A stretch of 11,042 bases of DNA from a virus (taxonomy: Duplodnaviria > Heunggongvirae > Uroviricota > Caudoviricetes), in IMG/VR virus record IMGVR_UViG_2740892442_000010; one strand, written 5' to 3'. Shown here piece by piece: positions 1 to 11,042 of this stretch (positions within the stretch are counted from its first letter, which is position 1; each line of letters begins with the position of its first letter). Made by a program: the position numbers and the translations under genes. The notes under the pieces are model-generated. The model saw only the letters and a list, made by a program, of their open reading frames with translations, was not told the DNA's origin and ran no database searches.

Positions 1-282
1 ATGTCTGCCAGCACCCTAATTTCTATTGCAGAACAGGTAGAAGATGTTATGGGGGGCGAGCACTGGTCATTGCACGATCTGCGCAGAACGTGCAAAACAA
101 AAATGGCTGAACTTGGAGTAGCACCTCATGTTTCGGAGAAAATTCTCGGGCATAAGCTCACGGGGATGCTGGCTGTTTATGACCAGTATGACTACATCCC
201 CGAGCAGCAGGACGCAGCAGAATTATGGGCTAAGAAAATTCAAGAGTGTTCGGAAATCAATCCTTTATCTTTGCAAAACTGA
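1..282 (+). CDS. int: Tyrosine recombinase (phage integrase), C-terminal catalytic portion only; 5' end lies left of the window
   Basis: ORF runs from the first base to a stop at 280-282. Translation carries the C-terminal tyrosine-recombinase signature in order: HDLRRT (His-x-x-Arg), LGHK (His), VYDQYDY (candidate catalytic Tyr). The Met at position 1 is internal, not the true start. Confidence 0.8.
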   Translation: MSASTLISIAEQVEDVMGGEHWSLHDLRRTCKTKMAELGVAPHVSEKILGHKLTGMLAVYDQYDYIPEQQDAAELWAKKIQECSEINPLSLQN

Positions 283-469
283 ATAACTTCCTTGTAGCGA
301 AAGAGGCGCCGCCTTTCGGTGGGTGGATTTCTTCCACTTCCCGAGGGAATGGTGTCCCTGATTGCTCCCACTGTTTACGCTTCCGGTAAAAAGTAGTTCT
401 GGAGATACCACCAAGCATCTCCTGAACACGCTCGCGGTTTATTAGAATCGGCTGAATATTGATTGTCAT
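257..469 (-). CDS. Small HTH DNA-binding protein, AlpA/Xis-like (putative excisionase or transcriptional regulator)
   Basis: 70-aa ORF with GGAG 11 nt upstream of the ATG at 469. The segment LGGISRTTFYRKRK...FP resembles the AlpA/excisionase-type helix-turn-helix (L-x-G-[IL]-S-R-[ST]-T-[IF]-Y-R). The 3' end overlaps the integrase stop by 26 nt in convergent orientation, so the C-terminal residues are uncertain. Confidence 0.5.
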   Translation of the reverse strand: MTINIQPILINRERVQEMLGGISRTTFYRKRKQWEQSGTPFPREVEEIHPPKGGASFATRKLFSFAKIKD

Positions 470-590
470 TTGTATGGTTTCTCCATAAAGAAATAAACCG
501 TTCAGTGGCGGTTATTGTCGGTTGCGGTAGATCTGGCGATCTTGAGAAACTGTCAGGCCTCATCGAGTGTGAGGCTGTATGATTCCATAG

Positions 591-935
591 TTAGTCCTTG
601 CGTAGTTCTCTGATTCTTCTGTAAGTCTCTGGTGCTTTGTTTCCGTGTATCTTCATTTCAGACTTCAACAGAGCAACGAGAGAATCCCATTCGTTGAGGA
701 TGCCTTTGAATGCCGGAACGCGCTTTGCAACCTTGTCGAATGAATCTCTGATTTCTGGAATCTGCTCAACAAGTGCAACGCATCGTCGGAAATCGGCTGC
801 GTCATGTGGAGCGCCGAAGTGATGACCATAGATATTCTTTTTCAGTCCACATGCGATTGAGGCAAGAGTTGCGCTACTGATGCCGACATCGCCAGTCGTT
901 TGCCATTTCAAAATCTTCATAGCCAAATCTGACAT
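591..935 (-). CDS. Hypothetical protein, 114 aa from the ATG at 935 (six-frame ORF extends to 962)
   Basis: Minus-strand ORF. The internal ATG at 933-935 is preceded by GGAGA (complement of 942-946) at about 7 nt spacing; the upstream ATG at 960-962 sits inside the loop of a GC hairpin and has no RBS. No recognisable motif. Confidence 0.5.
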   Translation of the reverse strand: MSDLAMKILKWQTTGDVGISSATLASIACGLKKNIYGHHFGAPHDAADFRRCVALVEQIPEIRDSFDKVAKRVPAFKGILNEWDSLVALLKSEMKIHGNKAPETYRRIRELRKD

Positions 936-946
936 TTCTTGTCTCC

Positions 947-969
947 AATAAAAAACCGCCATCAGGCGG
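947..969 (-). terminator. Putative rho-independent terminator on the minus strand (short GC stem plus U-tract)
   Basis: Minus-strand read: CCGCC-TGAT-GGCGG (5-bp all-GC stem, 4-nt loop; + coordinates 956-969) followed immediately by TTTTTTATT (complement of 947-955). The stem is short, so strength is uncertain. Confidence 0.4.
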
Positions 970-1035
970 CTTAGTGTTCTTTCAGTTCTTCAATTCGAAT
1001 ATTGGTTACATTGTTTTCATATATGAATAAATAAT

Positions 1036-1215
1036 TTAGCTTTTTTCGTTGCTTCCGCGTTCTTTATTATTTTTACTAAACTCGTTTTTACCGCGCATTC
1101 CAAATGCGTCTTTAGAGTTGTTGTATCCGCAATCACTGCACACATAATCTCCAGACCATCCACGCCTTGTTTTTTCTTTTGCAATATTTCCAGAACCGCA
1201 TTTTGGACAAGACAT
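1036..1215 (-). CDS. Small zinc-ribbon protein (CxxC-x19-CxxC) with Lys/Asn-rich C-terminal tail
   Basis: ATG at 1213-1215 preceded by GGAGG with 7-nt spacer (minus strand ggaggtagtgatATG). Product MSCPKCGSGN...YVCSDCGYNN has two CxxC pairs typical of a zinc ribbon. The longer ORF to 1248 lacks an RBS. The overlapping ORF 1017..1256 in another frame is rejected. Confidence 0.6.
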   Translation of the reverse strand: MSCPKCGSGNIAKEKTRRGWSGDYVCSDCGYNNSKDAFGMRGKNEFSKNNKERGSNEKS

Positions 1216-1268
1216 ATCACTACCTCCAAAGCATGAGTGAGATGACAACGTAACATTGATTGGAAATT

Positions 1269-1282
1269 AACAATATATTGTT
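1269..1282. promoter_or_regulatory. Perfect 14-bp palindrome AACAATATATTGTT upstream of the zinc-ribbon gene (candidate operator)
   Basis: AACAATA/TATTGTT is exactly self-complementary. It lies in the 96-bp intergenic gap between the Ead stop (1312) and the zinc-ribbon start (1215), 54-67 nt upstream of that ATG. Confidence 0.3.
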
Positions 1283-1311
1283 GATGTAAAAGATATGTAT
1301 AAGATTCGCTA

Positions 1312-2217
1312 TCAGAGCGGCGGTTCTGGTAGCGGCATCCAGTGGGTTACATTGCGGCTCTGCGTTTCGAAGAACTCCTCACCATTGCGGACAACATCAA
1401 AAAACTCACCGTCTCGATATTGCGCATAAAGAACGAATGCGCCATCACATAAAATAATTACGTGCTGACCATCATCTGGCATTCGCTCACTACAGCTTAT
1501 CCAACCATCCGGAGTTACCGGATAGTTGCCAGACAGCGCATTCTGCAACCGTTCCAGCTTCACGTATTCCTGAACTCTGTTTCCGTCGCACGTCTGAAGC
1601 CATTGAGCAGCCTTTTGCGCATCAGTGTGAAAGGCACAAGTGCGACCGTCATCAAATTGCATTTTGTAGAGGTCAGCAACCTGTTCAAACTCCGTTTGTG
1701 GCAAGTTGTAAGTTTGGCTTACAGGTTTGGCACCATGAAGCATGGCGGCACGACAGGCGTTCCAGCCTCTCACCTCTGCAATAGCTGCAACCGCATCAAC
1801 CGCATACATGCTAAGAGGGTTCGGCATTGGTTTTTCTTCCGGTACTACTGGCGATTGCTGTTTAACTTCTAAATCAGCAATTCTGTCAACTACGGCATCT
1901 ACTGCATCTGAAAAACTGAAACAGTTACTCCATTCCGGCCTGTTCCCGGTTGCTGCAAAATACATATCAGCTAAAGCATACTCAGCATGGTCACGCTCGT
2001 TGATGAGTTGCTCTTCGCTTTTCTCCAGTTCAGCAATACGCTTACTCCCATCCGAGATAACGCCCTCGTAATACTCACGCTGCTCGTTGAGTTTTGATTC
2101 AAGTTCACCGAACTTACGGACAAGATATTCAGCGTTTGTTTCGTTAACCTTTAAATCTCGTGGGATGCATTTACCTTTCAGAAATCCATCCATCTCAATT
2201 AGTGACATTTGTTTCAT
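1312..2217 (-). CDS. Ead/Ea22-like early-region protein with C-terminal DUF551-type domain
   Basis: Long minus-strand ORF. The C-terminus ...[12 protein letters not shown] matches the characteristic DUF551 ending found in lambdoid-phage ea-region proteins. Start assigned to the ATG at 2215-2217, which overlaps the upstream stop as ATGA (translational coupling); the ORF track begins at a GTG at 2235. Confidence 0.7.
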
Positions 2218-2396
2218 TTCTTCCCACTCCGCCACATCGCATTCAGATATTTGTTTTGATTTACTGATGGAAAAGAATTTCTCTTAAGCAATTCCTCTCT
2301 CGATGGCATTGGCTTTACGCGTTGGCGAATAATCATTTCTGCCGGAAGAATGCCGGGATTGTATGCAAGTCCTCTCATGGTAAATTCCTCAGTCAT
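2214..2396 (-). CDS. Small hypothetical protein (about 60 aa), translationally coupled within the ea operon
   Basis: The ATG at 2394-2396 overlaps the stop of the upstream ORF (minus strand aATGacTGA), and its own stop overlaps the Ead start (ATGA). No recognisable motif; the start could instead be the next Met (MRGL...). Confidence 0.35.
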
Positions 2397-2685
2397 TACT
2401 GATAGCGCCATAGCGTGAGCGGTAATTACGCAGGCGCGGGTCGATATATTCAGGGAAGTGGGTATATGTGGCTTTGCGGAATGGTCGGATTGATGTCTGG
2501 TAAATTCGCTCTCGTTCTTCTTTCTCTGCAAGCCATATACAGTGGCGAAATTCCTTTTCCTCTTTCGTTTCCTGCGGTAGCGACATTATCCGATCGTAGT
2601 TTTTTCTGAATTTATCCAGCACCTCCGATACGGAATTGCCGGAACAGCGGCGCGGGTCATCCGCACCATACAGAGGCGCTGGCAT
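2389..2685 (-). CDS. Hypothetical protein, 98 aa
   Basis: Minus-strand ORF with AGGAGAA 4 nt upstream of the ATG at 2685, starting 16 nt after the stop of the exonuclease-like ORF. No recognisable domain. Confidence 0.5.
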
Positions 2686-2701
2686 GGTTTTCTCCTGTTG
2701 A

Positions 2702-3199
2702 TTATTTAGCTAACTTTTTCCAGATCGCTGAAACGTATTTGGCTTGGTGAATGGCATCATCAAGCGCGTTGTGGCGAGTTCCTTTGAATGGCATATCTCG
2801 CTTAGGGTCGAATCCTATTACCTTCCCAAGTTCGACGATTGTTCTTACGTCGCGGTCATTCCACCACTGCCACGGAACTGGCTGCCCTGTCAGCGAATAA
2901 CTGTTGCGGAGAATAACGCAGTCAAATGATGCTCCATTCCCCCAAACCTGAACGAATTTGTGGTTGGCGTTCTTTATGATGAATTCAGATAACCATGAAA
3001 GAGCCGTTGAAAGCTCTTGAGTGTTGCTGGTTAGCGATTTTCTGGCTTCTTCACTCTGTTCCATCCACCATAAAATCGTTGAAGCGTCAGGACGCGCCCG
3101 ATATCGCATTGATGACTCAAGCGAGATATTTACCGAGAACTCTTCTCCTGTTTCTCCGGTATATGAATTTACGCCATACAGCAAACAGCGTGAGTTCAT
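2702..3199 (-). CDS. DEDD-type 3'-5' exonuclease-like protein (DnaQ/Rv2179c-like motifs II and III present); probably 5'-truncated at the deletion junction
   Basis: Translation contains WGNGASFD (Exo II-like, FD) and [13 protein letters not shown] (Exo III-like, H-x4-D), but no N-terminal D-x-E motif is visible. None of the candidate starts (3199, 3109, 3064) has a convincing RBS. The first about 11 codons are simply the reverse complement of the terminase-like fragment that begins near 3165. Confidence 0.45.
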
Positions 3200-3761
3200 C
3201 GACGCCGGGCATGACTATCCAGAGCGATGTTTTATGGCTGGTAACCAGCTTGGTAAGTCATTTACTGGTGCTGCTGAAGTCGCGTTTCACCTTACCGGGC
3301 GTTACGCGAACAAGCAACTGGTGATGATGGGGCTGAAGAAACCAGAAACACCTGAAGAGATGGAGATGGTACAGCAGGCTCAACAGCAGCCGCAGCAGCC
3401 ATCAGCAGAGCAAATTCAGGCGCAGGGTATCCTTCTGCAAGGTCAGGCTGAATTGCTCAAGGCAGAGAACCAACAGGCGCAGATTCAGGTTGAAGCCGCC
3501 AAGGTTGAAGCCCAAAACCAACTCAACGCCGCGAAGATTGCAGAAATCTTCAACAATATGGACCTCGACAAGCAGGCAGAACTGCGTGAGTACCTCAAGC
3601 TAGTAGGTCAATTCCAGCAACAGCGCAGCAAAGATGCTCGTGCTAACGCTGAGCTGCTTCTTAAAGATGCAGACCAGACTCATTCACAACGCATGGATTT
3701 CGCGAATCTTATGCGTCAAGTTCAAATCCCCTCCGGCGGAGTAGCCGAGACACCTCAATAA
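3021..3761 (+). pseudogene. Deletion-scar chimera: terminase large subunit N-terminal fragment (about 3165-3305) fused in frame to portal protein C-terminal fragment (about 3305-3761), P22-like
   Basis: Residues [47 protein letters not shown] carry a P-loop ([AG]-x4-G-K-[ST]: AGNQLGKS) typical of a terminase ATPase N-terminus. The sequence then switches abruptly to a Gln/Ala/Glu-rich helical segment (QQAQQQPQQ...[40 protein letters not shown]...) that I recall as the C-terminal barrel of the P22 portal gp1. The P22 order is 3-2-1-8-5 and scaffold/coat genes follow directly. An out-of-frame ATG at 3163-3165 (tatATGAATTTACG) suggests the native start was ATG-GAA-TTT (MEFTPY) with a 1-bp loss. 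Confidence 0.6.
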
Positions 3762-3774
3762 GAGAGAGTTAATC

Positions 3775-4686
3775 ATGGACCAAACCACCGACATTCAGGC
3801 TTCTGAAGAATTAACCCTGCCCGGCAATCATGCAGCGGCATCTGCTGATGGCTTAGTTGTCGATAATGCCAACGACAACGCAGGTCAGGAAGAAGGCTTC
3901 GAGATTGTCCTGAAAGACGATGAGAAACCAAAACAAGACCCGGCAACTAATGCTGAATTTGCCCGTCGCCGCATCGAACGCAAACGCCAGCGTGAGCTTG
4001 AGCAGCAGATGGAAGCGGTTAAGCGTGGAGAGTTGCCGGAGCACCTGCGGGTGAACCCTGAGTTACCAAAACAACCAGACCCTAACGATTATCTTTCCGA
4101 AGATGCACTGGCTAAGTACGACTATGACCAGAGCCGCGCACTGGCTGCCTTCCAGCAGGCAAACAGTGAATGGCAGATCAAGGCTATGGACGCACGAAGC
4201 CAGGCTGTCGCCGAGCAGGGTCGCAAAACTCAGGAGTTCACCCAGCAATCAGCGCAATACGTCGAGGCAGCCCGTAAGCACTACGACGCAGCGGAAAAGC
4301 TCAATATCCCTGACTATCAGGAGAAAGAGGATGCATTCATGCAACTGGTGCCGCCAGCAGTCGGTGCCGACATCATGCGCCTCTTCCCGGAGAAATCCGC
4401 TGCTCTCATGTATCACCTTGGTGCTAATCCTGAAAAAACACGCCAGTTGCTGGCGATGGACGGGCAATCCGCGCTGATTGAACTCACTCGACTGTCAGAA
4501 CGTTTAACTCTCAAGCCTCGAGCCAAGCCTGTTTCAGAAGCCCCGTTACCTGATGAACCAATTCAGGGACACGCTGTTGCTGCAAATATCTCTGCGATTG
4601 AAAAGCAGATGGAAGCGGCAGCAAACAAAAGGGATGTAGAGACGTACCGCAAGCTCAAGGCGCAACTGAATAAAGGAATTCGATAA
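3775..4686 (+). CDS. Phage scaffolding protein (P22 gp8-like), apparently intact, 303 aa
   Basis: RBS-like AGAGAGAG about 7 nt upstream of the ATG at 3775. Same length as P22 gp8, and the N-terminal region ([29 protein letters not shown]) and C-terminal basic coat-binding region ([15 protein letters not shown]) match my recollection of that protein. Stop overlaps the coat start as TAATG. Confidence 0.85.
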
Positions 4687-5732
4687 TGGCATTAAATGAA
4701 GGTCAACTGGTCACGTATGCTCTGGATGAAATCATCGAAACCGTCCAGAATCTGACGCCAATGGCGTCCAAAGTGACAAAATACACCCCTCCGGCAGAAT
4801 CCATGCGGCGTTCAAGCAACACCGTGTGGATGCCTGTTGAGCAGGAAGCGCCAACCCAGACTGGCTGGGATTTAACTGGCAACGCAACTGGGATTCTGGA
4901 ACTCTCCGTGAAATGCAACATGGGCGATCCGGATAACGATTTCTTCGAGCTTCGTGCAGATGACCTGCGTGATGAGCGTTCTTACCGTCGCCGCATCCAG
5001 GCATCCGCTAAAAAACTGGCGAATAACATTGAGTCAGCAATTGCCAAACAGGCAACTGAAATGGGCTCACTTGTTGTTCACGATACCCGCGCAATTGGTC
5101 CATCTACTGGCCTGTCTGGCTGGGATTTTGTGTCTGATGCAGAGCGCCTGATGTTCTCCCGCGAACTCAACCGCGACATGGGCATCAGTTACTTCCTGAA
5201 CCCTGACGATTACCGCAAAGCAGGCCGCAACCTGGTAGATGGTGACATCTTCGGTCGCGTTCCTGAAGAAGCGTATCGCAACGGTACTATTCAGCGTCAG
5301 ATTGCTGGCTTTGATGAAATTCTTCGCTCACCGAAACTTCCGGCAGTTACCAAGTCAACCGCTACTGGTGTAACTGTTTCTGGTGCGCAGAAGTTTAAGC
5401 CGCAGGCATACACCCTTGATACCGATGGTAACAAAGAGAACGTCGACAACCGTGTTGCAACGGTGACCGTATCCTCCACCACCGGATTTAAGCGCGGCGA
5501 CAAAATCAGTTTCACTGGTGTGAAATTCCTGTCTCAGATGGCGAAGAACGTGCTAACTGATGATGCGACTTTCTCAATCACCCGTGTGATCGATGGTACT
5601 CACATCGAAATCACGCCGAAACCGATTGCACTGGATGACGCGTCACTGACAAAAGAAGAGAAGGCTTACGCTAACGTAAACACCTCTCTTGCTGATACCA
5701 CTCCGGTAAACGTTCTGAACACCAGCCTATGA
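4686..5732 (+). CDS. Phage major coat protein (P22 gp5-like), 3'-truncated at 348 aa versus about 430 aa; likely nonfunctional remnant
   Basis: N-terminus [19 protein letters not shown]... and internal segments ([68 protein letters not shown]) match my recollection of the P22 coat protein. The ORF ends after ...[20 protein letters not shown], well short of full length, and the downstream P22 genes (4, 10, 26, 14, 7, 20, 16) are absent. Confidence 0.8.
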
Positions 5733-5823
5733 AAGAGCGATAAATAACGCTGCGAATGCCATCAGACCGCTGTTTGCTACTGAGGCAACACAGCAGTAAC
5801 GTATGGGAAATTGGATTCAATCG

Positions 5824-6213
5824 CTAACATTTTCTTTTTACTTTTCCAACAAAAGCTTTGGTTGAATCCATATTTCTATAACCGGAAATGGTTTTTGACA
5901 TTAAAACTGTTCCAGTAGGATGTATTACCCATGAGTCGATAACGCGTTGAGTTTCGCCATTCGCGCCGATTCCTATGATGGAGTTTTTAGACAATGCTTT
6001 GTAAGCCATGCCGCCCGCATCTGTCCCAGAATATGTGATGCTGGCATCTTCACCGTTTGTCTTAATGATGAATGTTCCACTAAAACCATCTTCTTCCGGA
6101 TGGAAATTATTTCGTTCTGAATAGCTTATTCCGCGCATATCTCCAACGACCCAGCACTCTGCTGTAGCCCCAAAAGATATGAATAAGAACATAGCAGTAA
6201 GAAATTGCTTCAC
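5824..6213 (-). CDS. Exported protein of unknown function with N-terminal signal peptide (moron-like cargo)
   Basis: Strong RBS AAGGAGG with 5-nt spacer before a GTG start at 6211-6213. N-terminus MKQFLTAMFLFISFGATA/ECW has a hydrophobic core and an A-x-A-type cleavage site. No recognisable catalytic motif. Divergent from the adjacent lipoprotein gene. Confidence 0.6.
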   Translation of the reverse strand: MKQFLTAMFLFISFGATAECWVVGDMRGISYSERNNFHPEEDGFSGTFIIKTNGEDASITYSGTDAGGMAYKALSKNSIIGIGANGETQRVIDSWVIHPTGTVLMSKTISGYRNMDSTKAFVGKVKRKC

Positions 6214-6330
6214 GCCAACCTCCTTAGTTTTGAGCAGGATACCATGAAAAAAGTAAACATCTTTTGCCTACTTCACATTTGAATGGTTTGTCATTAGGAT
6301 GTTTCCGGTTTTTTAAATATGGAAATTGAT

Positions 6331-6750
6331 ATGAAGAGGATTATTGGCGTCGTTGCTGGCGCTATATTGTTATCTGGGTGCGCAACTATTGTTGGTGACG
6401 AAACGCAGCTTGTGCAAGTGAACAGCAATCCTTCCGGTGCGAGCTTTAAGGTAAAAGACGAATCAGGCGTGATTGTTGCGCAAGGTAAGACCCCACAAGG
6501 AGTAACTCTTGCCAAGTCAGATGGTAGTTATTTTGGCAAAAAGAGCTACCAGATCACTATGGAAAAGGATGGGTACGAACCAGTTACCCTGCCAATCAAA
6601 GCCAATGCTAATGGCTGGTATATTGGTGGAAACCTTGTGTTTGGTGGGTTAATTGGTTGGCTTGCTGTAGATCCTTTTAATGGTGGGATGTATACCTTGA
6701 AGCCAAAAGAGGCAAACGCATCTCTTATACCATCAACAAAGCAAGACTAA
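6331..6750 (+). CDS. Lipoprotein (lipobox LLSGC) with PEGA-like beta domain and Gly-rich C-terminal segment
   Basis: MKRIIGVVAGAILLSG-C is a canonical signal II peptide with the lipobox Cys. PSGASFKVKDESGVIVAQGKTPQGVTL resembles the PEGA motif; the C-terminal segment GWYIGGNLVFGGLIGWLAVDPFNGGMY is Gly-zipper-like. An upstream in-frame ATG at 6319 is a possible alternative start but has no RBS. Followed by a strong terminator. Confidence 0.7.
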   Translation: MKRIIGVVAGAILLSGCATIVGDETQLVQVNSNPSGASFKVKDESGVIVAQGKTPQGVTLAKSDGSYFGKKSYQITMEKDGYEPVTLPIKANANGWYIGGNLVFGGLIGWLAVDPFNGGMYTLKPKEANASLIPSTKQD

Positions 6751-6758
6751 TAAATAGG

Positions 6759-6781
6759 ACCCACCTTCAGGTGGGTTTTTT
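6759..6781 (+). terminator. Rho-independent terminator (likely bidirectional) between the lipoprotein gene and mnt
   Basis: ACCCACC-TTCA-GGTGGGT (7-bp stem, 4-nt loop) followed by TTTTTT on the + strand, 9 nt after the lipoprotein stop. The last three codons of the convergent mnt ORF lie inside the 3' half of the stem. Confidence 0.65.
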
Positions 6782-7018
6782 GTACAAATCCTTCAGCGTA
6801 TCAAACACCATCTTCCTAACAAGTTCGGACTGCTCATCAGCGATGCGTTCTGCATCGTCTCGATAGTCTGAAATTTTGGATGGCTTTGATACAGCATCAG
6901 TCACTATCTGAACTAATTCTGAATTAAGAGAGCGGCCATTGGATTTGGCTCGCTGTTTTAGTTTTTCCTTTAATTCGTAAAGTAGCCGCAGATTAAATTG
7001 CGGGTCATCTCTTCCCAT
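6767..7018 (-). CDS. mnt: Mnt repressor (ribbon-helix-helix, Arc/MetJ family), P22 Mnt homolog, 83 aa
   Basis: Translation MGRDDPQFNLRLLYELKEKLKQRAKSNGRSLNSELVQIV...DAERIADEQSELVRKMVFDTLKDLYKKPT is near-colinear with P22 Mnt as I recall it (MARDDPHFNFRMPMEVREKLKFRAEANGRSMNSELLQIV...KKMVFDTLKDLYKKTT), with the same length and the RHH beta-strand FNLR motif. GAGG lies 8 nt upstream of the ATG at 7018. Confidence 0.85.
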   Translation of the reverse strand: MGRDDPQFNLRLLYELKEKLKQRAKSNGRSLNSELVQIVTDAVSKPSKISDYRDDAERIADEQSELVRKMVFDTLKDLYKKPT

Positions 7019-7081
7019 TCTTGATGCCTCGCTTTTGTGAGTGGAGCGGCATCTTATTATCTGCTGGTTGCATCCTCAATA

Positions 7082-7096
7082 AGACCACTGTGGTCT
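7082..7096. promoter_or_regulatory. Perfect 15-bp palindrome AGACCAC-T-GTGGTCT, candidate Mnt operator
   Basis: Exact inverted repeat 64 bp upstream of the mnt start codon. It resembles in style the symmetric P22 mnt operator half-sites (GTCCAC/GTGGAC type, recalled). A plausible leftward promoter for mnt (minus strand TTGAGG-17 nt-TAAGAT, + coordinates 7051-7079) sits immediately beside it. Confidence 0.5.
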
Positions 7097-7290
7097 CTTT
7101 ATTTGATTAATAATGCATCACTGCGGCCACGCTGCAGCGATTCCTTGTATCTGGAGCAAATTAAATGACAGATATTATAAATAGGAATTGTTATTTAATA
7201 ATATTTGAAAATGAAAATCATGGACGATAGGAATAAAAGTAGTACTTGTTATTTTTAAGTGACGCATTAAACGCATAAAGCATATGTCTG

Positions 7291-7319
7291 TTGATCAAGA
7301 TTCTTGCTTGTTGTAAAAT
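7291..7319 (+). promoter_or_regulatory. Candidate sigma70-type promoter upstream of the tailspike gene
   Basis: TTGATC (7291-7296), 17-nt spacer, TAAAAT (7314-7319); would give a leader of about 118 nt to the tailspike ATG. The region is AT-rich, so chance matches are likely. Confidence 0.25.
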
Positions 7320-7443
7320 AATTGTTTTGTTCATGTTGCATAGTTTTAAAGTGAATAGAAGATTATTTTTCAAAACAATTGCATCTTTGTCTGCAGTCAT
7401 TCCGTTTTCTTCAATATCTAAATTTTCAAACAGGATGACTAAT

Positions 7444-10176
7444 ATGCCTGATATAACTCCAAATGTTGTAATTGGGATGCCTTCTCAACTCTTCACTATG
7501 GCTCGTTCTTTTAAAGCCGTAGCTAATGGAAAAATTTATATCGGTAAAATTGACACTGACCCTGTAAATCCTGAAAACCAGATTCAGGTTTATGTAGAGA
7601 ATGAAGATGGTTCTCACGTTCCTGTTTCGCAACCAATCGTTATCAATGCTGCTGGATATCCTGTATATAACGGACAGATTGCCAAATTCGTTACTGTGAA
7701 AGGACACTCTATGGCTGTGTACGATGCTTATGGTACGCAGCAGTTCTATTTTCCGAATGTGCTGAAGTATGACCCGGATCAGTTACGGCAGCAATTAGAA
7801 GATCCTGATGGTGCTAAAAAATACCCTGAATTACAGATTGCACGATGGCGGGATGATAAAGACGTTCGCGGGTGGGGGGCGGATGACTCTGGGAATAGAG
7901 ATTCAACACAGGCTTTTCTTGACGCCGCATCTAGCGCAGGAAATAGTGGTTTGGTTCATGTGCCTTCTGGTGAGTTTATAGTTGATGCATCGAAAATAGA
8001 TATTTCACGCTTCTCCGGTGATGGTGTTCTAATCAGTAATGGTGTTCGCATTTCTGTTAATCCGCCGATGCAAAGTTTCTCCATTGGACAAAGAAAACTT
8101 GCGACCCTGAATTTTGGTGATGATATCAATGCGCCAACTATATATGCGAATGCACAAAATGCATTGCAGGGAATAGCTTGTGTAAGGCATGAAGGTATTG
8201 AGAAGGTTTTTATCACTCAACAGGTTGGAGGTTCTAACTGGGGAACGGACACCCTCACAAGGATCAGTGAGTGGCACTATACAAGCGATGGTTCAACTCT
8301 TTATGTTGTGACATTTACAGAGCCATTGCCTCTTGGTCACGGTTCAGATCTTTCTGCCACAATAGAGAACGGTGAACTATATCTGTTTACAACAACAATT
8401 GCTGAGACTGGTTCCTCTCTAGGAGGGAAGGGGTATTCAAAGACAAAATGGAAAGGGGCATCAACATCTGCTGAAGATATAACTCATTACCGAGTATTTG
8501 GTGAGCCGGGTGATAATAATCTGATTAACCTTGCGCAGCGGGCAAGTATTTGTGTATCTAATGATGGGCGATATGTCATATTAATTGCGACATCAAACGC
8601 TGGGACTGGCCGCTTTTTATACGTATATGATCGCAAAGAAGTGGAATCTTCTTCTAACCCAATGAAAGTTAGACCGATTAATGGTCCTGTTCCACTTGTC
8701 CGTGGTAAAGGTCAGTATGGTGCAACACTTCAGGGTATTACATCAGATAGCAGATATATTTACACAATTTGGGGTGGCGTTCCTGCAAGATGCGTAAGGA
8801 CAGTACAGATTTATGATATGGGTGGTACGCTAATACGTTCATTTCCTGTATCACTTGCCGCATCACTTTATACAGAGACTCAGTTAAATGGTTCTGACTC
8901 TAAAATCGGAGTTCCGGTTAGCTTTGAGCCTGAAGGGCTGGCAATAAGAGGTGATGAACTTGTCTGTGGTGCTATGGATGTATGGAAAAGCGCAGGGGAT
9001 GTTGTAAGCCATCGTGGTAAAAATTGGGTAAGTATTGTTACTGGTGATAACAAGGGAAATCTTCCGACAAACAGGTCTTATTGGTTAAAAACATCGCTTG
9101 CAGCGACAAGTGGTGAATGGGATTCAGGCGCAACATATAAATCAGGTGATTATACTCGCAGAAATAAGCATCTGTTTGGAATAGCAAACCTGTCTGATAT
9201 TCTTGGCAACCATCCAGTGCATGGTGCAGAATCCGATCCGTATACCGGAACCGCGCATCAATATTATGCTGGAACTGATATCGCCTTTAACCGTGAGCAC
9301 GGTTCATTTACTATTGCGATATTTGACGAAGCCATTGGAGAGTATACCAAATCCCTCGAGTTGAATTATGGAAATAACCTTAACCTGTTTGATACAGATT
9401 ACGGACATGACAATAATTCATGGGTAAGTACGAAAGCAGTATTCGACTCAAACTTTCGAGGTATGCAGTTCCGTTCTAAAGATGGGAATACTGCGGGTGG
9501 TGCTTATATTGATATCCATGCTGCTGATTGTCCATCTGCGGCTGGTGAGTTGATACTTGCCTCTACAGATGGAGGTGTCGTCAGACTTAAGCAGGGGAAT
9601 GTAACAGTATTTTCTGCGACTAAAGATACTACATCGACATGGGCGACGACGACATTAAGGCCAACAACTGATAACCAGGTATCACTTGGAAGGTCCGTTA
9701 ACCGCTTTTCTCAGGTCTACGCAGGGACTGCAACTATAAATACATCTGATGCAACAGAGAAAACGGAAGTCAGAACTCTTTCCGATAAAGAGCAGGCGGT
9801 TGGGTTAGCTCTTGTTGATGAAATTGGTTTTTATCAATGGCTTGATAGTGTAAAAAATAAGGGAGCTGATGCCAGACTTCATGCCGGACTTACGGTGCAA
9901 CGGGCAATGGAAATATTCAGAGAGAATGGACTTGATCCATTTAAATACGGAGCGATCTGCTATGACAGATGGGATGCATATACAGATACAGATCCAGCTG
10001 TTTATGATGATGAAGGTAACCTTGTTCGTGAGGCTATAACTATTACGCATGAAGCAGGAGAACGCTATGCATTCAGAAATGATGAATTACAGTATCTAAT
10101 GATTGCTGCATTAGGTATACGTCAGAAAAATATTATAAAGAGGATTGAAGAACTGGAAAATAAGCTTGCAAATTAA
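7444..10176 (+). CDS. Phage tailspike protein, mosaic: P22-type N-terminal head-binding domain, divergent receptor-binding/enzymatic body, C-terminal intramolecular-chaperone-like (peptidase S74-type) domain; 910 aa
   Basis: Start set at the ATG at 7444, with AGGA 8 nt upstream; the ORF track's upstream extension from 7291 is AT-rich and non-protein-like. The first about 115 aa ([59 protein letters not shown]...NVLKYDPDQ) closely match the P22 gp9 head-binding domain ([34 protein letters not shown]..., recalled), and similarity ends right after KYDPDQ. The C-terminal about 143 aa from Ser at 9745-9747 ([10 protein letters not shown]...) fit the S-D-x-x-x-K pattern of autocleaving chaperone domains. 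Confidence 0.85.
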
Positions 10177-10331: not shown

Positions 10332-11042
10332 TTATTGTTTTTCTTTTGTTAGGTTCCAATATTCACTTGTGGTTTTTATGGAGTCCTTATTAGGCTTTAC
10401 ATAAGGTTTATGTATGGAGAGATGAGGTCTTTCCCAGGCAATGTCTTTTTTTATTACTCTTGCTGGAACTCCTGCTGCAATAGAGTTATTTGGGACGTGT
10501 CCTTTAACAACAGCTGCATAGCCAATAACACTACCACTTTCGATTTCTGCACCACCAAGTATTGCCGCTCGGCGGCCAACCCAGACATGACTTCCAATAT
10601 AAATAGATTTTGGCATATTTATACGTTCACCTGTTACTACACTAAAAATAGGGTGGGAGTCATCAGTTTTAACTTCATTTCCACTTGAAAACATGCAGTC
10701 ATCGCCAATAATTATGCTTGAGTTTTCTACAGCAGAAATCATACCTTTACCAGTGCAAGTGAAATCAGAGCCTATTTTTATGGAGGAATTCTCACCCACT
10801 CTTATATGGGCTTGTATACCTTTGTTTGCGATATGGCATGGGCCAATTTCAAAATACCCATTGTTGCAGTCAAAATATATCTCAAAATATTTTAATGATG
10901 CATCTTTATGAATGATAAGTTTATTATTAGATCCTCTAAACTGAATTAGTTTGACGTCACAACTACCTTCGTACTGGATCTCATTACCCATTTCATCAGA
11001 ATACTTCTCTGCTTTTGTTAAAACAACTTTTCTAATTTTCAT
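10332..11042 (-). CDS. Hexapeptide-repeat (left-handed beta-helix) acetyltransferase; start coincides with the window edge, so the 5' end may extend beyond
   Basis: The C-terminal half IGSHVWVGRRAAILGGAEIESGSVIGYAAVVKGHVPNNSIAAGVPARVIKK shows the [LIV]-G-x4 hexapeptide periodicity and the AAGVPARVI ending typical of the LacA/Maa/NodL/WbbJ-like O-acetyltransferase family. Visibly AT-rich coding sequence. The ATG at 11040-11042 is the last codon in the window. Confidence 0.75.
   Translation of the reverse strand: MKIRKVVLTKAEKYSDEMGNEIQYEGSCDVKLIQFRGSNNKLIIHKDASLKYFEIYFDCNNGYFEIGPCHIANKGIQAHIRVGENSSIKIGSDFTCTGKGMISAVENSSIIIGDDCMFSSGNEVKTDDSHPIFSVVTGERINMPKSIYIGSHVWVGRRAAILGGAEIESGSVIGYAAVVKGHVPNNSIAAGVPARVIKKDIAWERPHLSIHKPYVKPNKDSIKTTSEYWNLTKEKQ

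Follow-up and report, generated by a model that had tools for sequence, protein, structure and literature searches.

The open reading frame (ORF) at positions 3021 to 3761 of the 11,042-nucleotide stretch of DNA analyzed here (the window) is very probably a nonfunctional deletion scar, that is, a fusion pseudogene within a heavily decayed P22-like (Lederbergvirus) prophage of Escherichia coli. A preliminary description of this DNA proposed an in-frame chimera in which internal deletion had joined the N-terminal, P-loop-containing part of a large terminase (TerL) to the C-terminal crown and barrel of a portal protein, and BLASTN, Pfam, PHROGs, and PDB searches bear this out. The fusion is an ordinary product of prophage decay and not a new kind of protein; one of the deletions happens to be in frame, and annotation pipelines consequently call the fusion a protein. 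From features of the sequence we infer that it is neither expressed nor functional.

Composition of the fused reading frame

The ORF keeps one frame throughout, from a GTG codon that follows an in-frame stop at 3018, and both parental segments sit in that frame. Residues 48 to 95 of the ORF correspond to TerL residues 35 to 82, and residues 95/96 to 246 correspond to portal residues 570/571 to 721. Its parts are as follows.

3021-3761, plus strand: chimeric ORF, 246 amino acids, with a GTG start at 3021
3021-3159, plus strand: chance-open 5' extension of the chimeric ORF, on the antisense strand of an exonuclease gene
3160-3304, plus strand: terL fragment, terL nt 101 to 245 of 1500 (TerL residues 35 to 82 of 499)
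3237-3260, plus strand: Walker A motif (P-loop) AGNQLGKS of TerL, seen in the translation and within the Terminase_6N match
3303-3761, plus strand: 3' fragment of the portal gene, nt 1708 to 2166 (residues 570 to 721 plus the stop codon)

The first 46 codons (3021 to 3158) are simply the exonuclease gene read in antisense and are open by chance. BLASTN of the window revealed no terL or portal homology in 3021 to 3159, and the minus strand of window positions 2601 to 3162 matches abc2 and the exonuclease gene of phage mEp235. The RefSeq/PGAP call comprises only 3234 to 3761, a 175-residue product (WP_241380463.1) named "terminase large subunit domain-containing protein" in RefSeq and "portal protein" in other records.

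Coliphage APC_JM3.2 (MG197996.1), in which a 1,500-nt terL is followed directly by a 2,166-nt portal gene, served as the reference for both halves. Over window 3160 to 3304 the nucleotide identity (BLASTN) is 97.2% to terL of this intact Lederbergvirus (E value of 4e-67) and 98.1% to a prophage terL of E. coli SCAID URN1-2021. Pfam Terminase_6N matches the ORF over profile positions 1 to 46 of 215 (E value of 1.6e-6, above the gathering score), PHROGs profiles place large terminase at residues 48 to 97, and AGNQLGKS fits the Walker A pattern [AG]x4GK[ST]. The remainder of a complete TerL ATPase fold (Walker B, catalytic Glu, and coupling motif) and the RNase H-like nuclease domain are missing, and the Pfam search gave no Terminase_6C match to the ORF. 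The native terL start, which overlaps terS, is likewise missing; the deletion at the upstream junction, J1 (see below), took terS entirely along with terL nt 1 to 100.

The preliminary description took an out-of-frame ATG at 3163 as the native start, displaced by a 1-bp loss, and this part of it fails. The sequence TATATGAATTTACG is identical in the intact terL genes of APC_JM3.2 and of a second prophage, where it is read as CTA-TAT-GAA-TTT-ACG (L34 Y35 E36 F37 T38); hence there has been no 1-bp loss at 3163, and the ATG, present and out of frame, is unchanged internal terL sequence. The true terL start, with the N terminus (M/V)ELDAILDNLSDEEQ..., lies 100 nt upstream of the J1 breakpoint and was deleted by J1.

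For the portal-derived part, window 3303 to 4000 matches APC_JM3.2 from portal nt 1708 through the end of that gene and into the start of the scaffold gene at 99.9% identity (BLASTN; E value of 0). PHROGs profiles assign residues 94 to 230 of the ORF to portal. In a PDB sequence search, residues 91 to 246 align with residues 567 to 725 of the P22 portal (3lj5; E value of 3e-55), and the barrel-only chain 9pdp also matches (E value of 5e-41); there was no match of the ORF to Pfam P22_portal (PF16510). The crown of the P22 portal spans residues 525 to 600 and the barrel residues 600 to 725 (Lokareddy et al. 2017, PMC5290284), and by these limits the portal piece consists of the last ~30 crown residues and the entire C-terminal helical barrel (P22 residues ~567 to 725). 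The ring-forming core of the portal (wing, stem, and stalk/clip; P22 residues ~1 to 525) is absent, portal nt 1 to 1707 having been deleted, and this includes the stalk, whose residues 344 to 398 bind L-terminase/gp4 (PMC5290284). The isolated P22 barrel (residues 602 to 725) is monomeric and largely unfolded in solution (PMC5290284). Judged by these alignments, the identities of both halves to terL and portal exceed chance by far.

Three junctions with short microhomologies

The rearrangements in and around the ORF map to three junctions, resolved to the base by comparison with intact parental genes. Breakpoints in the sequences below are marked by a slash.

3160-3162, junction J1: minus-strand exonuclease gene joined to terL nt 101, with 3-nt TAT microhomology
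3303-3304, junction J2: terL nt 245 joined to portal nt 1708, with 2-nt TA microhomology
5717-5720, junction J3: coat gene nt 1035 joined to the last ~83 nt of a gp16-like injection-protein gene, with 4-nt GAAC microhomology

Relative to APC_JM3.2, J2 is a 2,964-bp (988-codon) in-frame deletion. The parents read ...GGGCGTTA/TCCGGG in terL and ...GAGAGTA/CGCGAAC in the portal gene, and the window reads GGGCGTTACGCGAAC. Because terL and portal share a frame in the phage and 2,964 bp is a multiple of 3, the fusion stays in frame. Longer homology at J2 was considered and rejected; an imperfect GAACAA similarity lies downstream, 2 nt out of register, and the sequence puts the crossover at the TA. 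The terminase-portal junction, earlier placed near 3300 to 3320, is thus at 3303/3304.

The exonuclease parent at J1 is that of phage mEp235, which is 99.3% identical and reads ...CTCCGGTAT/TCGGG; the terL parent reads ...CTGCTAT/ATGAATTT, and the window reads CTCCGGTATATGAATTT. The preliminary description had the terminase fragment abutting minus-strand early genes near 3110 to 3165 through a second deletion, and this is what we find, with the junction at 3160 to 3162 and the minus-strand genes being those of the early left operon. J3 and the chimeric, truncated state of the exonuclease gene were not part of that description.

Microhomology had been suggested as a feature to look for at the junctions, and it is present at J2 (TA) and J1 (TAT), as well as at J3 (GAAC). 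By our own arithmetic, microhomologies of at least 2, at least 3, and at least 4 nt arise in random sequence with chances of about 0.16, 0.05, and 0.015, respectively. Finding 2, 3, and 4 nt at the three junctions is therefore improbable without the use of microhomology and points to microhomology-mediated illegitimate recombination, which we infer to be the mechanism at J1, J2, and J3.

Deletion product, natural family, or misassembly

A 233-residue form of the fusion with a proper start codon occurs in several metagenome contigs, as might be expected if the ORF belonged to a natural, full-length protein family combining an N-terminal TerL segment with a C-terminal portal segment and were not a deletion product. 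All members, however, share the identical nucleotide junction and are at least 98.8% identical to the window. They are also 97 to 99.9% identical to two separate, adjacent genes of intact phages, in which the two segments stand 2,964 bp of ordinary terL/portal sequence apart; high identity to both parents together with the absence of precisely this intervening stretch is the expected signature of a deletion scar. When the 233-residue form was compared with 5.8 billion clusters, no protein spanning both halves was found outside one cluster formed at ≥90% identity, and all other cluster hits cover at most 68% of the query, i.e., one half only. The preliminary description had named a natural family with this architecture as the observation that would speak against a chimera, and the sole cluster recovered carries the identical junction. 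A natural TerL-portal family is thus extremely improbable and, on these sequence comparisons, already effectively refuted.

Some of the carriers are low-coverage metagenome contigs, in which a misjoin of terL and portal reads during assembly could be suspected. Against this, the junction is present in the complete circular chromosome of E. coli TUM10008 (100% identity over 2600 to 4000), in independent NCBI isolate assemblies (L012, L014, and L015), and in ENA, JGI, and Logan data, and the probability that we attach to an assembly artifact is close to nil. The fusion is far better explained as a deletion scar.

Gene content and losses of the prophage remnant

The window matches the TUM10008 chromosome (NZ_CP135658.1) end to end with one 1-nt indel, and window positions 1 to 9761 are 100% identical to the draft assembly GCA_001630845.1. 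In the RefSeq annotation of TUM10008, the locus begins with espL1 (a pseudogene), an IS1-split tyrosine integrase, and small minus-strand early genes (DUF551, DUF2737, anti-RecBCD Abc2, and the 3'-5' exonuclease). It continues with the 175-residue terminase call, scaffolding, P22 coat (a pseudogene with the C terminus missing), and two small genes, and it ends with an Arc/Mnt repressor, tailspike, acyltransferase, and thrS. Genes follow one another here as in a P22-like (Lederbergvirus) prophage that has lost most of its middle, and RefSeq flags both int and coat of the remnant as pseudogenes. The genes flanking the fusion are as follows.

2702-3199, minus strand: 5'-truncated 3'-5' exonuclease gene (Rv2179c-like), carried in RefSeq as an intact "3'-5' exonuclease" (WP_098704034.1, 165 amino acids)
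3775-4686, plus strand: full-length scaffolding protein gene, 303 amino acids
4686-5732, plus strand: coat gene cut after nt 1035 of 1296 (345 of 431 residues), followed by three foreign codons and a stop

The exonuclease gene has lost its first 88 nt (29 residues of the 182-residue parent), including the DLET motif (Exo I, DxE), and its new N terminus consists of 13 codons read off antisense terL. Since the Exo I motif is gone, the product of 2702 to 3199, itself a deletion chimera to judge from its sequence, is probably catalytically dead.

Losses were scaled on Salmonella phage epsilon34, an intact colinear phage carrying the same exonuclease gene, with APC_JM3.2 as a further source for the content of the missing modules. 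On the epsilon34 scale, J1 accounts for ~16.3 kb, extending from the first 88 nt of the exonuclease gene through ssb, erf, kil, cIII, N, PL, the repressor, PR/cro, cII, replication, the nin genes, Q, PR', lysis, and terS with pac to terL nt 1 to 100. About 8 kb is missing at J3 on the same scale (the coat 3' end, gp4, gp10, gp26, gp14, gp7, gp20, and most of the last injection protein), which takes out all of the head-completion, needle, and ejection-protein genes. Together J1, J2, and J3 amount to ~27 kb of a ~40-kb genome, and the remnant is devoid of terS and of genes for the repressor, replication, lysis, head completion, and injection. That at least two deletions had removed the immunity, replication, lysis, and small-terminase regions and most of the terminase and portal genes was proposed earlier and agrees with the comparison to epsilon34 and APC_JM3.2; the recombination and nin/Q regions have gone too. 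The loss of essential modules, alongside an exonuclease, coat, and int that are truncated or split, is again in keeping with a deletion scar.

Several other features of the locus can be noted. At L001 4698-6682, immediately before window position 1, an IS1A element interrupts the integrase gene; window 1 to 282 is the C-terminal integrase fragment. The sole difference from TUM10008 is the 1-nt indel, in a G run at window position 307 within a minus-strand ORF (257 to 469); it alters the length of an AlpA/Xis-like DNA-binding ORF, which has 70 residues in the window and 76 in TUM10008. The 19.4-kb locus contains no tRNA gene, and the attachment site (espL1/yniD to thrS) is therefore not a tRNA. 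Nor did the window have any Rfam matches, and a structured RNA or tRNA as an explanation of the locus or its attachment site was rejected on the Rfam and tRNA scans.

At window 6767 to 7443, the next gene after mnt (83 residues, with Arc and Mnt domains) is the tailspike gene, with no arc, ant, or sar; this layout also occurs in the intact phage Gally and is therefore natural variation in the immI region, not a further deletion. The tailspike (window 7444 to 10176) is a full-length, 910-residue protein with a P22 head-binding domain and an endosialidase-chaperone-type C terminus, and a hexapeptide-repeat acyltransferase (window 10332 to 11042, minus strand) adjoins thrS. The tailspike and acyltransferase may represent lysogenic-conversion cargo that is still of use to the host.

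Distribution and order of events

An exact look-up found the 175-residue product on 109 contigs and in 240 index blocks, and the surroundings were those of this remnant every time; among 5,426 complete E. coli genomes, J2 (or J1 plus J2) is found only in TUM10008. The 90% cluster containing the 246-residue form also includes the 233-residue proteins, which have the native TerL N terminus and the identical LTGRY/ANKQ junction. These derive from metagenome contigs (L006 to L010) that have exactly the same J2; terS is intact in them and overlaps terL by the usual 23 nt, and the TerL N terminus is the native one. Two of the contigs (L008 and L010) carry J3 too, and samples with the 233-residue form include ERZ1756037 and ERZ28657917. 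The gene order of the contigs is DUF2560, terS, fusion, scaffold, 348-residue truncated coat, and mnt, and L008 is 99.98% identical to window 3160 to 7540. As J2 and J3 are present in these contigs together with terS and the native terL start, both predate J1.

A later stage is represented by L011 (ENA ERZ28651568 scaffold_189), a copy of the remnant next to thrS with an extra deletion of window ~3047 to 3205 that removes J1 and gives a 200-residue ORF (P0022). Further small deletions at window ~1989 to 2046 and ~6465 to 6505 bring the extra deletions to three in all. This looks like continued decay or an artifact of the metagenome scaffold. An earlier state in L006 to L010 and a further-decayed state in L011 fit the succession expected around a deletion scar.

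Other rearrangements of this kind can be seen elsewhere. In E. coli SCAID URN1-2021 (NZ_CP082824.1; L002 5901-6188), terL is cut after ~288 nt and adjoins minus-strand abc2, exonuclease, and ssb genes, several of which are frameshifted. We considered whether this strain shares the window junction, but the breakpoint differs, falling in the same part of terL, and the rearrangement is an independent one. By their Pfam content, database proteins P0047, P0053, P0058, and P0084 also resemble deletion chimeras in P22-like prophages (Rz lysis plus TerL-N, terS plus TerL-N, TerL-C plus portal, and Cro plus YdaS). Deletion scars in P22-like prophages seem to be common and to be called routinely as proteins.

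Expression, selection, and possible function

Neither half of the fusion can do its packaging job, as the rest of the ATPase, the nuclease domain, and the portal ring core are gone. Consensus scans identified no sigma-70-like promoter on the plus strand of 1250 to 4773 or on either strand of 2600 to 4000 (though read-through transcription may occur), and no promoter or terminator was found around the ORF within 2600 to 4000. Direct reading showed no Shine-Dalgarno-like sequence before the ATG at 3234 chosen by PGAP.

We considered whether the fusion is a domesticated interference protein that, once produced, disrupts the assembly or packaging of superinfecting P22-like phages. On this reading, the crown/barrel helix could coassemble with incoming portal subunits, or the TerL N terminus of the 233-residue form could titrate the small terminase. 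It would be in line with a fusion that is in frame, with a sequence unchanged across many assemblies, with the native start and terS coupling kept by the 233-residue form, and with the intact scaffold, tailspike, mnt, and acyltransferase genes kept by the remnant. It would also be in line with the single nucleotide polymorphisms (SNPs) in the ORF among the J2-sharing copies, which are skewed toward synonymous changes (12 synonymous and 1 nonsynonymous).

The SNP pattern is accounted for otherwise, however. Nine of the 13 variant alleles occur in a panel of just seven intact terL/portal genes, and the skew most plausibly reflects variation with its origin in functional genes; recombination with intact phages or mixed-read assembly could have brought in the shared alleles. 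All of the ORF variants sit in short, low-coverage metagenome contigs, and the four isolate copies have no differences among them and are identical to the window. SNPs private to the remnant (absent from the intact panel), counted over chimera and scaffold, are four nonsynonymous to four synonymous. On these counts we have set aside the 12:1 skew as evidence of purifying selection on the fusion. The copies are, moreover, too recent to reveal constraint: the window differs from the intact portal/scaffold stretch of APC_JM3.2 by 1 mismatch in 698 nt, and in so young an element an open frame says nothing about selection. That the frame stays open across J2 at all is a matter of luck with a 1-in-3 chance.

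Other observations also weigh against an interference protein. The window form lacks the native start, terS coupling, and PR'/Q in addition to any promoter-like site or Shine-Dalgarno sequence that we could find; L011 is further eroded at the ORF site; by itself, the P22 barrel is a largely unfolded monomer in solution (PMC5290284); and there are no divergent homologues with the same architecture. A component of a defense system was likewise considered and rejected, with PADLOC-DB defense profiles matching 0 families for the ORF and five neighboring ORFs. We regard a domesticated interference protein as very unlikely.

A more specific version, also speculative, is that a low-level TerL(N)-portal(crown/barrel) polypeptide, especially the 233-residue form, interferes with superinfecting P22-like phages as a dominant-negative decoy; such a decoy would either use its TerL N terminus to tie up the small terminase or use its crown/barrel helix to enter portal rings as they form. 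The prospects of this idea are very faint. If it were true, selection for the decoy role could explain retention of the remnant in many E. coli isolates.

Proposed history and significance

The preferred reading, a deletion scar, suggests the following history. A prophage of ~40 kb, sitting between what is now an IS1-split integrase and thrS in the E. coli chromosome, shrank to ~12 kb through at least three deletions, probably RecA-independent and microhomology-mediated, with 2 to 4 nt shared at each. The J2 deletion removed terL nt 246 through portal nt 1707, fusing TerL residues 1 to 82 to portal residues 571 to 721, and the J3 deletion took the 3' end of the coat gene through most of the last injection-protein gene. 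In the later J1 event ~16 kb was lost, beginning with the 5' end of the exonuclease gene and ending with the first 100 nt of terL; the fusion thereby lost the late promoter, the native terL start, and the coupling of its translation to that of terS. Any remaining product would presumably be an isolated P-loop attached to the crown-end/barrel helix of the portal, without the ring-forming core.

Two annotations should be amended: the ORF is neither a terminase nor a portal but a fusion pseudogene, and the adjacent "3'-5' exonuclease" is a truncated chimera without its first catalytic motif. The locus raises no new biological question, and its value lies in annotation and in illustrating prophage decay. 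It is a clean and datable case of stepwise prophage erosion, with three base-mapped deletions, an earlier stage in metagenomes, and a later one in another sample.

Comparison with known systems

The N-terminal half of the fusion is most like the P22 gp2-type large terminase (Pfam Terminase_6N/PHROG 2), with 97 to 98% nucleotide identity over terL nt 101 to 245 and the Walker A motif kept. In contrast to that enzyme, the ORF keeps only 48 of 499 residues, and the first 34 residues, the other parts of the ATPase, and the entire nuclease domain are absent. Its C-terminal half resembles the P22 gp1 portal (PDB 3LJ5/5JJ3; PHROG 156), aligning over the crown end and barrel, with the 99.9% nucleotide identity to the APC_JM3.2 portal gene given above. 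It differs in having no counterpart of residues 1 to 569 (wing, stem, stalk/clip, and most of the crown), and there can accordingly be no dodecameric ring, DNA channel, or terminase/gp4 docking site.

Defective (cryptic) lambdoid and P22-like prophages in Enterobacteriaceae, such as DLP12, Rac, and Qin of E. coli K-12, decay by deletion and IS insertion, and a survey of defective prophages was reportedly published by Bobay, Touchon, and Rocha (PNAS, 2014). By analogy with the E. coli K-12 cryptic prophages and with genome surveys, the remnant is a textbook defective prophage of a kind already known. The likeness extends to its position beside a host gene, the IS1-split integrase, the colinear gene order, the large deletions, the fused and truncated ORFs, and the cargo that has been kept. 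There is no categorical difference from these elements, and what is specific to this locus is an in-frame deletion that fuses two adjacent structural genes.
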